Positions 1-5,576 of a stretch of 64,000 nucleotides of DNA are shown here, in pieces (positions within the stretch are counted from its first letter, which is position 1; each line of letters starts with the position of its first letter). The stretch is taken from assembly GCA_963705245.1 (NCBI GenBank), contig OY970062.1:557421-621420 (forward strand). The letters are read 5' to 3'. Origin of the DNA: an uncultured Solirubrobacterales bacterium. Its GTDB lineage: Bacteria > Actinomycetota > Thermoleophilia > Solirubrobacterales > Solirubrobacteraceae. The notes beneath the pieces are model-generated. The model had not been told where the DNA came from, did no database searches, and saw only the letters and a list, made by a program, of their open reading frames with translations. Both the position numbers and the translations under genes were made by a program.

Positions 1-930
1 GCGGCGGTGATCGACATCGGTACTAACAGCACCAGGCTGTTGATCGCTGACGTGGACGCGGACAGGCGGGTGACGGAGGTCGTGCGCCGCTCGGTCGTGA
101 CGAGACTGGGCGCAGGGGTCGATGCCGGGGGCGAGCTGTCCGAGGAAGGCTGCGAGCGGGTATTGGCCGCGGTGAAAGAGTTCAGACAGGAGATCGACGA
201 GCACCCGGACGAGCGCGGCGAGTCTTATCCCAACCTGGCGGTCATGACTTCGGCGGTTAGGGACGCGCGTAATGGCAAAGAGTTCGCCGAGAGGATCGAG
301 TCCGAATACAAGCTCAACACGAGGATCCTCACGGGCGAGGATGAGGCGAGGTTGACGTTTCTTGGTGCGATGTCAGGTCGTATTGCTCCTGACGAGTCGA
401 CTGTCGTCGTGGATATCGGGGGAGGATCGACCGAGTTCATTATCGGTATGGGCCATAAAGCGGGCCAGCACGTGTCGCTGCCCGCGGGTGTTGTGAGAAT
501 GAGCGAGCGACACATCCACAGCGATCCGCCCAAGCCGGGTGAGCTGCAAGAGCTCGCGGCAGACACGCGCGCCATATACCTCGCCGGTCTGTCTCACATT
601 GAGAGCCGGGCGATAAAGCACGGTATTGCGGTCGCCGGGACCGCAACGTCGGCGGCCGCGATCGACCAAGAGCTTGACCCTTATGACCCAGAGCGCGTGC
701 ACGGGTATCGGTTGCTGCTTGCCACGGTCGAGATGCTGCTCGCGCGGTTGGCCGACATGGACGAAGCGCGACGCCGGAGGCTCGTCGGTTTGCATCCGGA
801 CCGTGCCCCGACGATCGTCGCCGGTCTGATCCTGCTGTCAGAGGCGATGAAAGCATGTGATCTCGACGAGGTGGAGGTCTCCGAGCACGACATCCTGCAT
901 GGTGGCGCGCTATCTATCGTCGAGAGCTGA
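1..930 (+). CDS. ppx: Ppx/GppA family exopolyphosphatase (5' end probably just outside the window)
   Basis: IDIGTNSTRLLI, ILTGEDEARLTF, VDIGGGSTE and SEHDILHG motifs; frame is open from base 1. Confidence 0.92.
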   Translation, partial: AAVIDIGTNSTRLLIADVDADRRVTEVVRRSVVTRLGAGVDAGGELSEEGCERVLAAVKEFRQEIDEHPDERGESYPNLAVMTSAVRDARNGKEFAERIESEYKLNTRILTGEDEARLTFLGAMSGRIAPDESTVVVDIGGGSTEFIIGMGHKAGQHVSLPAGVVRMSERHIHSDPPKPGELQELAADTRAIYLAGLSHIESRAIKHGIAVAGTATSAAAIDQELDPYDPERVHGYRLLLATVEMLLARLADMDEARRRRLVGLHPDRAPTIVAGLILLSEAMKACDLDEVEVSEHDILHGGALSIVES

Positions 931-989
931 ATGCGTCGGGAGCTGAATTCAGTTCTCCACGGTAGTTCAAACATCTGATACTCTTGTCA

Positions 990-1154
990 GGAGAGACGCG
1001 TGCATGCCACACGTCCCCAAAGCTGGTTCATAGGTTTGGACGGTGCCGAGCGAATCCTTGGCACTCCTGCTGTCCAGATCGCCCACCCCGAGACACGTAC
1101 CCCTGCCTGTTCCTCGGGGTCCCTGAGGAAGCCGTCCATCGGGCGGCTTCCTCA
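990..1154 (+). ncRNA. Candidate structured non-coding RNA, family unassigned
   Basis: Extended -10 TGATACTCT at 976-984, then stems 995-1002/1008-1015, 1037-1043/1070-1076 enclosing 1043-1050/1057-1064, 1086-1092/1113-1119 and 1124-1134/1144-1154; no convincing ORF. Confidence 0.35.
1124..1154. terminator. 11-bp GC-rich hairpin between convergent ppx and ilvG-like genes
   Basis: TGAGGAAGCCG-N9-CGGCTTCCTCA; no U tract. Confidence 0.5.
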
Positions 1155-1206
1155 CGTTACGCGAGAGCCACCAGCTCGCCGGTCCGACGGCCGGCGTGAG
1201 CGAGCG

Positions 1207-2910
1207 TCAAGCCAGGTTGGACTTGCGCGGGTAGATGACCTCGGGGTCGGTGAGGACATTGACGAGCGCGGGGACACCGGCGGAGAACGCGCGCTCCAGC
1301 GCGGGCACGACATCGTTGGGGTGCTCAACCAGCTCGCCGTTGCAGCCGAGGGCCTCTACGACCTTGTCGTATCGTGTTCCGGGGCGCAGCTCGGCCGCGA
1401 CGGAGTATCCGTACAAGAACTCCATCGGATGCTTCTCCAGGGCCCAAATGCCGTTATTGCCCATTACGCCGACGACGTTGACTCCGTGGCGCGCAAGCGT
1501 ATCGAACTCCATCCCGGAAAACCCGAACGCGCCATCGCCGAGGAGCAGCACGACTTGGCGGTCAGGATGGGCGAGCTTGGCCGCGAGTGCGTAGCCGGGG
1601 CCCGCGCCGAGGCAGCCGAACGGGCCCGGATCAAGCCAGCAGCCGGGCTGATAGGAGTCGATCACGCGACCGGCGTAGGAGACGTAGTCGCCGCCGTCGC
1701 CGATCACGATCGCGTCGCGGTCGAGGACGCGGGCGAGCTCGGCATACAGCCGCATCGGGTGAAGCGGGGAGCGGTCATCCTCGATCTCTGCGCGCTCGGC
1801 GGTACGACGCTCGGTCTCGGTGGCACGCAGGTCTTCGATCCAACGCTCGCTCTGCGACGCCTGCCCTCCGGCCCCGGCCCCGGCCCCGGCCCCGGCGTCA
1901 GCCCCAGCACCAGTGCGGGCGACCGCGCTGCGCAGGTCCGCGAGCGTGGCCGGGAGCGATCCATACAGCTCAGCCGCGACCGTCCGCGGATGGCGGCGCT
2001 CGGGTTCGGCGGTGTCGATTACGAGGATCTCGGTGTCATCCCCGAACGAGCTTCCGAAGCCGAGCCGGAAGTCCATTGGCACTCCGATCACCAGCGCGAC
2101 GTCAGCTCCCTTGAGCGCGTGCGAACGGGCGCGAGAGAAGAACAGCTCATGGTCGGCGGGGACACAGCCGCGAGCGAGGCCGTTCAAGAAAACGGGGATG
2201 CGCAATGCCTCGGCGAGCGCGAGCAGCTCGGACTCGCCATGCCCCCAGTACAGGTCGGTCCCAGCCATGATCACCGGGCGCTCGGCGGTGCGCAGCCGCT
2301 CGGCGGCACGTTCGATCGCGGCGTCATCGGCGCCGCGGCTCGCACGAGGGGGCAGACCCTCCAGCACGCTATCCGGCTCGGGGGCCTCCATGAAAACGTA
2401 GTCCAGGGGAAAGTCCACGAATGTCGGGCCACCGTGGGGAGCGAGTGCGACAGTGAATGCTTCGTCGACGAGGCCGGGGATCTCGGCTGTGCTCTCGGGC
2501 GTGACCGCGAGCTTGGTCAGAGGGCGGACGAACGGGATGTGATCGATCTCCTGGAGCGAGCCCATGCCCCAACGTCCGGCAGGCGCGCGCCCACCGAGGA
2601 TGACCATTGGCGAGTGGTTGGCCTGGGCAGAGCCCATCGCGCTCATGCCGTTGGTGACACCCGGACCGGCCGTGAGCGCGCACACACCGGGCTCGCGCGT
2701 GACCTTCGCCCAGCCCTCGGCGGCGAACGCTGCCGTGGACTCATGACGGACGTCGACGATCTCGATCCCCTCATCGCGGCAACCGTCATAGATCGAGAAC
2801 AGGTGTCCACCGGACAGCGTGAACAGCTTGCTGACGCCATGAGCGCGCAACCGCCGGGCGACCAAGCGCCCGCCGTGGAAGGTCTCGGTGGTCTCCTCGA
2901 CAGTGGCCAT
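1207..2910 (-). CDS. ilvG: ThDP-dependent enzyme, acetolactate synthase/2-hydroxyacyl-CoA lyase family (IlvG-like)
   Basis: [26 protein letters not shown] and [11 protein letters not shown]...NN ThDP motifs; internal (CGGCCC)4 repeat at 1869-1896 encodes a GAGAGA loop. Confidence 0.85.
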
Positions 2911-3100
2911 CGGGGCGCGACTCTATCCGCTGAGGCGCGCGACTGCCACCGTCGATGTGAGAGGGGATGCCGAGACCGAGCGCGAGACAGGACGAGCGCG
3001 TTCCGACCGCGGCCGCACGCGTGCGGGTGATGGGGCGCTTTCGATATGAGTCTCATCCCCCCGGACGAGGAACGCGCGTGCCGGAGACGCCAGGGAGAGG

Positions 3101-4139: not shown

Positions 4140-5576
4140 ATGTCCGTCAGCGCAGTGCCCGCGATCGCCCCCTCCACGATGGGCTCATCCGCACTTGGGT
4201 TCACGACGCTCGAGCGCGAGGTGGTCGCGGACGAGCTGGAGTGCAGTGGCGAGCTGCCGGGCTGGCTGAGCGGTTCGCTGCTACGCACCGGCCCGGCCAA
4301 GTTTGAGGTGGGTGAGCAGCGCATGCGACACTGGTTCGACGGACTGGCGATGCTCCACCGGTTCACGATCGACGAGGGGCGGGTCTCCTACGGCAATCGC
4401 TTCCTGGAAAGCCGCTCATACAAGGCCGCGCGCGAGCAGGGCAGGATGGTGTACGGGGAGTTCGCCACCGATCCGTGCCGCTCGCTGTATAAGCGTGTGC
4501 AGACGCTGTTCTCGCCGGGAAATGTGCTGCCGGACAACGCGAACATCAACGTAACGAGGCTGGGCGAGCGGTTCGTCGCGATGACCGAGACCCCGCTGCC
4601 GGTTCAGTTCGACCCGCACACGCTGCAGACAGCTGGAGTGCGTCCGTATGAGGTCCCAGGCCAGCTCTCGACCGCCCACCCCCATCTGGATCGAGCGAGC
4701 GGCGGGATGCTCAACTACGCGGCCAAGCTGGGAGCGCGCAGCAGCTACCGGTTCTTTCATGTCGCCCCGAATGAGCGCAAGCCTCGCGCGATCGCATCGC
4801 TGCCGGTGAAGGAGCCCGCATACATGCACTCGTTCGGGCTCACCGAGCATTGGCTGGTGCTGGCAGAGTTCCCGTTTGTCGTCAACCCGCTGGCGCTGGC
4901 CCTGTCGGGACGCCCGTACATCGAGAACTACCGCTGGCGTCCCGAGCTCGGCACGCGCATCACGCTCATCGATCGCGCGACGGGCAAGGCGAGAGAGGGG
5001 TTTCAGACCGACGCAATGTTCGCGTTCCACCACGTGAACGCCTACGAGGACGGCGGCGAGGTTGTCGTGGACCTGTGCGCATTTCCAGACGCGAGCGTGA
5101 TCGAGGATCTGTATCTCGATCGCCTGCGCGCCGGCAAGCCGATCCAATCCGCGGCGCTGACCCGGCTGCGCCTGCGCCTAGCCGACCGATCGGTGCGCCG
5201 CGAACAGCTCACCGAGGAGTACGTGGAGCTGCCGCGGATCAACTATGGGCGCTGCAACGAGCGCCCATACCGGTACGTCTGGGCCACCGGCGACGGGCCG
5301 AGCGGGTGGCTCGAGCGGATCGTCAAGATCGATACGACCGACGGGACCACGCGGTCGTGGTCCCAGCCGGGACACTACCCCGGGGAGCCGGTCTTCGTTG
5401 CCCACCCCGAAGCCGAGGATGAGGACGACGGAGTGCTGCTGTCGGTCGTGCTCGACGCGCAAGAGGGCAAGTCATACATGCTCGTGCTGGATGCCGCCGA
5501 CTTGAGCGAGCTGGCACGAGCCCAAGCGCCACACCACATCCCGTTCGGATTCCACGGCCAGTTCGCACGGGCATGA
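4140..5576 (+). CDS. Carotenoid cleavage oxygenase family (RPE65/BCO-like)
   Basis: HWFDGLAMLHRF, TAHPH, YMHSF, FHHVNAYE, EPVFV, EDDGVLL and PFGFHG (four-His iron ligands). Confidence 0.92.
   Translation: MSVSAVPAIAPSTMGSSALGFTTLEREVVADELECSGELPGWLSGSLLRTGPAKFEVGEQRMRHWFDGLAMLHRFTIDEGRVSYGNRFLESRSYKAAREQGRMVYGEFATDPCRSLYKRVQTLFSPGNVLPDNANINVTRLGERFVAMTETPLPVQFDPHTLQTAGVRPYEVPGQLSTAHPHLDRASGGMLNYAAKLGARSSYRFFHVAPNERKPRAIASLPVKEPAYMHSFGLTEHWLVLAEFPFVVNPLALALSGRPYIENYRWRPELGTRITLIDRATGKAREGFQTDAMFAFHHVNAYEDGGEVVVDLCAFPDASVIEDLYLDRLRAGKPIQSAALTRLRLRLADRSVRREQLTEEYVELPRINYGRCNERPYRYVWATGDGPSGWLERIVKIDTTDGTTRSWSQPGHYPGEPVFVAHPEAEDEDDGVLLSVVLDAQEGKSYMLVLDAADLSELARAQAPHHIPFGFHGQFARA

Follow-up and report, generated by a model that had tools for sequence, protein, structure and literature searches.

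The 64,000-nt stretch of DNA analysed here (the window) carries a stand-alone gene at positions 990-1160 of its plus strand; the predicted product, a structured small RNA, is ~170 nt long. The RNA represents an uncatalogued family that is confined, as far as sampled, to the order Solirubrobacterales. The support computed here consists of a gene-like anatomy, the single copy, synteny, a structure backed by covariation, the lack of coding potential and lineage-specific loss; transcription of the RNA is predicted. An earlier note on this DNA had proposed a novel structured sRNA at this place, and the proposal is borne out against Rfam 15 and the searchable literature. The family is new, but belongs to a general type of sRNA that is already known.

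The Locus and its Signals

The gene lies in the spacer between two convergent genes (window 931-1206; the features are collected in Table 1). The upstream neighbor, ppx, is on the same strand as the RNA and adjoins it at almost every homologous locus. The 3′-end of the other neighbor, an acetolactate-synthase-like (ALS-like) gene, faces the terminator of the RNA, and this synteny is also kept in nearly all loci. There is one copy of the RNA in its own genome (2.88 Mb, one contig).

The RNA has its own predicted promoter. The earlier note had described an extended -10 element pointing into the RNA. The start that follows from it (~989-991) can be kept, but the reading of the element as TG plus TACTCT is not conserved, the hexamer of the family being GATACT. 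Many relatives have a full TTGNNN-17-GATACT promoter after the ppx stop codon, 100-300 nt downstream of ppx. A simple sigma-70 promoter and terminator scanner, which requires a good -35 and a long T run, called neither a promoter nor a terminator in the window; the promoter was not called because the -35 of the window is poor. A palindrome-like sequence, TCAAACATCTGA, is found just before the -10 in the clade of the window. It has no second occurrence in the genome, and hence no regulon can be deduced from it.

At the other end of the gene, H4 is a strong hairpin on either strand. In other families the sequence of its stem is entirely different, yet the stem stays paired and is followed by 3-7 U on the plus strand. 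H4 is thus the intrinsic terminator of the plus-strand transcript.

The neighboring genes have signals of their own. Upstream of the ALS-like gene (window 2911-2935, minus strand) and at the homologous loci, TAGAGT is followed after 6-9 nt by ATG in most genomes. The start of ppx, just upstream of the window, has TACGAT followed after 7-8 nt by ATG, again in most genomes. A -10-like hexamer directly before the start codon suggests that the ppx and ALS-like mRNAs are leaderless. The ALS-like gene also contains a run of GGCCCC hexanucleotides (window 1869-1899, minus strand), which encodes an (Ala-Gly)n linker between the TPP-enzyme domains and is probably a slippage-prone insertion.

Table 1. 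Features of the sRNA gene, its neighbors and the motif found upstream of homologues (window positions unless a locus is named)
Feature	Position	Strand	Basis or remark
ppx, 3′ part (Ppx/GppA exopolyphosphatase family)	1-930	+	Pfam PF02541, E 2e-49; TIGR03706, E 6e-66
-10 hexamer GATACT	977-982	+	NATACT/GATACT kept at the matching position upstream of the RNA across families
Predicted transcription start	989-991	+	Inferred: 7-9 nt after the -10; covariance-model match begins at 984-986
sRNA gene, ~170 nt	990-1160	+	Covariance model R1 match 984-1158, 134 bits, E 9e-33
H1, sequence-variable hairpin	990-1018; core 995-1002/1008-1015, loop 1003-1007	+	MFE fold; 9/9 pairs compensatory in 62 sequences
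CAUAG junction motif, directly 5′ of H2	1029-1033	+	>90% conserved in 86 sequences; in 18/19 full-length homologues from other genera/families
H2	1033-1080; outer stem 1033-1041/1072-1080	+	MFE fold; 8/8 outer pairs covary, 97% of cells paired
H2 nested 9-bp hairpin	1042-1050/1057-1065	+	MFE fold
H2 3′ internal loop, pyrimidine-rich, UCCUGCU	1065-1071	+	Unpaired in MFE structure
H3, bears the conserved apical region	1085-1120; stem 1086-1092/1113-1119	+	MFE fold and RNAalifold; basal pairs covary
H3 loop ACGUACCCCUGCCUGU, candidate seed	1095-1110; C-rich core 1099-1107	+	
H4, Rho-independent terminator hairpin, 13-14 bp	1124-1154; loop 1138-1140	+	MFE fold; 12/13 pairs compensatory
Weak U tail (CGUUAC) after H4	1155-1160	+	
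ALS-like TPP enzyme gene, convergent	1207-2910	-	NF004516, 876 bits, above cut-off
TGGACGnnTGTYCGA, examples	Locus L076, ~5434-5448; also L099, L049, L115 and others		Upstream of the RNA in other families

Structure, Covariation and Coding Potential

The four consecutive helices described in the earlier note are the same four that minimum free energy (MFE) folding of 985-1160 (plus strand) recovers. The energy of the fold is -79.2 kcal/mol, as compared to -60.3 ± 4.2 for 200 dinucleotide shuffles (z = -4.47), none of which folds as well. The fold of the minus strand is less exceptional (z = -2.99).

RNAalifold, applied to a plain MAFFT alignment of 14 sequences, gave the same helices with 12 pairs compensatory, and the covariance model R1 was built from this alignment. 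When 86 sequences were aligned, 94.4% of the cells were paired vs. 39-49% in slid alignments, and double changes were present in 29 of the 45 pairs. It should be noted that the set of 86 is biased by the search pattern, in which the terminator and a portion of the H3 loop were fixed. For this reason, 19 homologues from other genera and families of the order, found by the model only, were added. The resulting alignment of 62 sequences has 93.7% of the cells paired and 39 of 45 pairs compensatory; slid controls reach 36-48%, and none of 500 shuffles attains the observed values. Fitting an alignment to a model favors the structure, but the independent RNAalifold result and the slid controls argue against an artefact of this kind. 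The earlier note had held that homologues without compensatory base changes would refute its proposal; such changes are present in every helix. The apical pairs drawn in the H3 loop never vary, and pairing there is therefore neither supported nor refuted.

The region lacks coding potential. All six frames through the conserved loop are closed in one homologue or another, the minimum being 7-13 open codons. The length of the RNA ranges from 157 to 198 nt across homologues, and the differences are often not multiples of three. With no frame conserved and the lengths out of phase, the earlier statement that the region holds no credible ORF stands.

Distribution and Loss

By blastn against 60 relatives, 13 congeneric genomes match, all 13 between ppx and the ALS-like gene. 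The spacers of these congeners are ~240-740 bp long and have one block in common. A pattern scan with one genome per species returned records mostly from Solirubrobacterales, the carriers including Solirubrobacteraceae, Conexibacter, Baekduia, Candidatus Siliceabacter and the cultured Paraconexibacter antarcticus. In P. antarcticus 02-257, the RNA occupies ~3,861,493-3,861,670 of NZ_CP098502.1 (locus L076, 5493-5670). At about 70 retrieved loci the order is the same: ppx, then the RNA in the same direction, then the ALS-like gene in the opposite direction. The retrieved loci contain about 85 full-length matches to model R1, in records named by their depositors as Solirubrobacterales. Homologues, on which the earlier note had made its proposal depend, are thus many, with more than 80 Solirubrobacterales genomes carrying one.

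Of the Solirubrobacterales genomes sampled, 86/151 match the covariance model, with one full-length copy each. By family the matches are 38/39, 15/18, 23/39, 7/38, 1/15 and 1/1, the sole match in the fifth family (1/15) looking false. These tallies take in an unpublished genome (G093), and the order-wide pattern tallies for the 11-mer and 20-mer of the H3 loop take in G072 as well; no claim depends on either. A broader covariance model (R2) had no match among 125 genomes of families of the class Thermoleophilia outside the order. Weak homologues were also sought in genomes without a covariance-model match, and the 11-mer sites there were coincidences in coding sequence. In metagenomes, at least 120 contigs, all longer than 1 kb, carry the 20-mer of the H3 loop.

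The RNA shows presence/absence polymorphism within one genus. Five genomes of the genus of the window (G014, G008, G104, G158 and G152; loci L243-L247), 92-97% complete, have no match to the RNA. In four of these, ppx and the ALS-like gene are ~30-60 bp apart, a spacer too short to hold the RNA; in the fifth the distance is ~150 bp, and again there is no match. It follows that the RNA was lost in these congeners and is dispensable there.

The variable parts of the spacer contain species-specific tandem repeats. Locus L020 has four units of ~42 nt between the sRNA terminator and the ALS-like gene, the L019 spacer has CGCCTCCT repeats, and that of L016 has repeated GAGCGCTCGCGGGACTCGG-like units. 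A separate observation concerns genome G169, where four identical copies of TGGGACGGGCAGGGATACGT are found (contig C1, at 1232267, 1255274, 1661184 and 2207247). They are presumably part of a dispersed repeat and are unrelated to the sRNA gene of that genome at 1297548-1297730.

Conserved Unpaired Segments and Base Pairing in Trans

Conservation of sequence is concentrated in segments that the fold leaves unpaired, H1 being free in sequence. Besides the CAUAG junction, these are the internal loop of H2 and the loop of H3. The H2 internal loop reads GCCUCCCGC in most other families and contains there the anti-Shine-Dalgarno core CCUCC; GCGCCUCCCGC of this loop is kept in 18 of the 19 full-length homologues from other genera and families. 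In H3, the apical ACGUACCCCUGCC is nearly invariant and ACCCCUGCC is >90% conserved (86 sequences). Most carriers in four families have the order-consensus 20-mer of this loop in their RNA gene, either exactly or with one or two differences.

The most likely mechanism, and one to which we would give slightly more belief than doubt, is base pairing in trans, with the loop of H3 and the internal loop of H2 as the pairing segments. The covarying hairpins H1-H3 hold two C- or pyrimidine-rich segments and the CAUAG junction unpaired, and the RNA would act in trans without Hfq. The C-rich loops may pair with G-rich single-stranded sites, for example the Shine-Dalgarno regions of leadered mRNAs, and the pairing would block translation or alter the stability of the mRNA, as for the mycobacterial 6C RNA. 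We infer that the RNA acts in trans, and likewise which regions are its seeds and in which direction it regulates. Pairing in trans is favored because of the sRNA-like anatomy (C-rich single strands on stable hairpins, in a phylum that is not known to have Hfq) and because of the 6C precedent.

The searches for targets gave no signal above background. When the four unpaired segments were matched by RNAduplex to ~2100 predicted start regions of this genome, the result was no better than that of internal controls. Exact 9-11-mer complements of the loops are few and scattered in this genome. Across the order, 11-mer and 20-mer complements of the H3 loop occur at background frequency, the RNA gene itself aside, and the extra loop-complement sites retrieved are unrelated coding sequence. 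The neighboring ppx and ALS-like genes are unlikely targets, since both look leaderless and would offer no Shine-Dalgarno site.

Other Readings of the RNA

A loop of ~20 nt that is near-invariant across families is more than a typical seed has to be, and may instead point to a protein or an RNP as the partner. The RNA might then bind protein or form an RNP as a sponge, a scaffold or a ligand of RNA polymerase or the ribosome, in the manner of 6S/Ms1 or CsrB, with the invariant H3 loop and CAUAG as protein contacts. We regard this as the main rival reading, unlikely though by no means far-fetched. In several families, where the ppx protein is only 50-57% identical, the RNA gene of most genomes has the loop 20-mer without a single change, and the lack of an mRNA target signal points the same way. 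Neither 6S nor 6C was detected in this genome, so that their niche could be open, but the control lines show that the searches with these two models are of limited sensitivity in Actinomycetota. The fold backed by covariation consists of four separate hairpins rather than the long rod with a central bubble of 6S, and the congeners can dispense with the RNA, both of which argue against such a partner. Repeated GGA loop motifs of the kind that bind CsrA were not seen on inspection of the homologue sequences. A sponge of the CsrB/Rsm type was rejected as an identity: the conserved unpaired segments are C-rich and, by inspection only, no GGA is conserved in a loop.

Action in cis on the neighbors, as a structured or processed 3′ UTR of ppx or as a bidirectional terminator or insulator between the convergent genes, would explain why the RNA is almost invariably located directly behind ppx and next to the 3′-end of the ALS-like gene. 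In some genomes the stop codon of the latter is only 1-14 nt from the 3′-end of the RNA, and the strength of H4 on both strands would also suit a shared terminator. We nevertheless hold this to be quite improbable. The stretch from the ppx stop codon to the RNA contains a conserved -10; a terminator needs H4 alone, yet H1-H3 covary and carry near-invariant loops; and the congeners without the RNA keep both genes, which hence do not require it. The suggestion in the earlier note that the region might be merely stacked terminators fails on similar grounds: H1-H3 covary, follow a conserved -10 and hold near-invariant unpaired loops, and only H4 is a terminator. A ligand-sensing (riboswitch-like) orphan or a ribozyme, with H1-H3 as the aptamer or catalytic core, has a very small chance of being correct. 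Conserved unpaired nucleotides in the junction and loops of a covarying multi-helix fold are what such an RNA would have, but no gene follows on the same strand (the next one is convergent), no alternative terminator/antiterminator pairing is evident, and H1-H4 are consecutive hairpins, not a multi-way junction, without a match in Rfam. The chance is negligible for the other alternative of the earlier note, in which the region is a bridge-RNA-like, non-coding end of an IS110-type element, and likewise for any other mobile or repeat element. Its sole support is the size and multi-loop look of the RNA. The note had suggested a search for further genomic copies, especially beside transposases; the RNA is single-copy, each matching genome of the order has one full-length match, always at the same chromosomal site between two housekeeping-type genes, and no transposase or other recombinase gene is adjacent. 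Single copy and synteny together exclude this alternative.

In the search against Rfam 15, no family matched the window at gathering scores, and at E ≤ 10 the region 880-1260 gave only chance matches to eukaryotic miRNAs and lncRNAs. The search agrees with the earlier note, which could not place the RNA with 6S, SRP, tmRNA, RNase P or a riboswitch. A search of the literature for small RNAs or RNA motifs of Solirubrobacterales or Conexibacter found nothing relevant.

A LexA-Like Motif in Relatives

The operator-like sequence TGGACGnnTGTYCGA is found directly next to the -35 of the sRNA promoter in 21 of 62 homologues, and always lies 38-40 nt upstream of the -10. In five genomes it is 2.3-11 times commoner than its reversed control. 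The motif resembles CGAACAnAYGTTCG, the LexA box that precedes lexA and recA in the order, except that GAAC is replaced by GGAC. It is absent from the window and its clade.

The regions upstream of recA were also compared in five Solirubrobacterales genomes (L192-L196, including G000:C1 at ~2405850). All five have TTCCGTCCG and four have GTTCCGTCCG. A TAnnnT hexamer lies ~10 nt after TTCCGTCCG in four of the five, with or without a canonical LexA box. The pattern is reminiscent of the LexA-independent DNA-damage promoters of other Actinomycetota.

A broader reading is that the RNA is a functional counterpart of 6C of independent origin: a global regulator under the control of stress, possibly of DNA damage, whose 20-nt loop and anti-Shine-Dalgarno-like loop engage a conserved partner (ribosome-binding sites or a protein) in an undescribed way. 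We regard this as decidedly unlikely. If true, the repeated loss of the RNA within one genus would mark a switch in the regulatory circuit.

Significance

The Solirubrobacterales, Actinomycetota that abound in soil, have hardly been studied by experimental genetics, and the literature searched described no regulatory RNA of the order. An sRNA that is order-wide, single-copy and strongly structured, and whose C-rich loops hardly vary, is a good entry point to post-transcriptional control in these bacteria. The family could enter RNA databases and allow annotation of a locus that is otherwise blank, and the presence of the RNA in at least one cultured species, Paraconexibacter antarcticus, makes experiments possible.

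Comparison with Known RNAs

The RsaE/RoxS-type sRNAs of Firmicutes are independent of Hfq, and their unpaired CCCC/UCCC motifs pair with G-rich Shine-Dalgarno regions. They belong to another phylum and are shorter than the RNA described here, with which they share no sequence or structural homology (no Rfam match). The RNA-polymerase-binding 6S and Ms1 RNAs are alike in length (~170-190 nt) and in having their own promoter and terminator, and are abundant RNAs of a housekeeping type. Identity with 6S (RF00013) was rejected: Rfam gave no match at the locus or genome-wide, and the fold is one of four hairpins, not a rod with a central bubble. The bridge RNA of IS110 elements is likewise structured and non-coding, of roughly similar size and with internal loops, whereas the present RNA is single-copy and syntenic, with no recombinase beside it.

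The closest comparison is to 6C RNA (RF01066; B11/6C of Mycobacterium tuberculosis and cgb_03605 of Corynebacterium glutamicum). Both RNAs are stand-alone, come from high-GC Actinomycetota and present C-rich loops on stable hairpins before an intrinsic terminator. In 6C, these loops need no chaperone to bind G-rich ribosome-binding regions, and do so on several mRNAs (PMC6486639). The promoter of 6C in C. glutamicum has a LexA site near its -35, and 6C plays a part in the SOS response (PMC5014011); the putative LexA-box-like motif lies at the same place near the -35 in many homologues of the RNA described here.

The two RNAs differ in build. 6C has ~75 model positions and two adjacent C-loop hairpins, each loop with a run of six or more C, whereas the RNA here is ~170-195 nt long and has four hairpins, with one internal and one apical C-rich loop carrying CUCCU/CCUCCC and CCCC. 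The genomic context (ppx/ALS-like) is also different, and the RNA is known in one order only. Membership in the 6C family was considered and rejected: RF01066 (gathering score 47 bits) gave no match at E ≤ 10 on 880-1260, at the gathering score in the window or at E ≤ 1 genome-wide, in searches that the control line indicates to be of limited sensitivity. In sum, on present evidence the RNA would work like 6C without being a member of its family, and it offers a second, independent example of the chaperone-free strategy of C-rich loops known from 6C.
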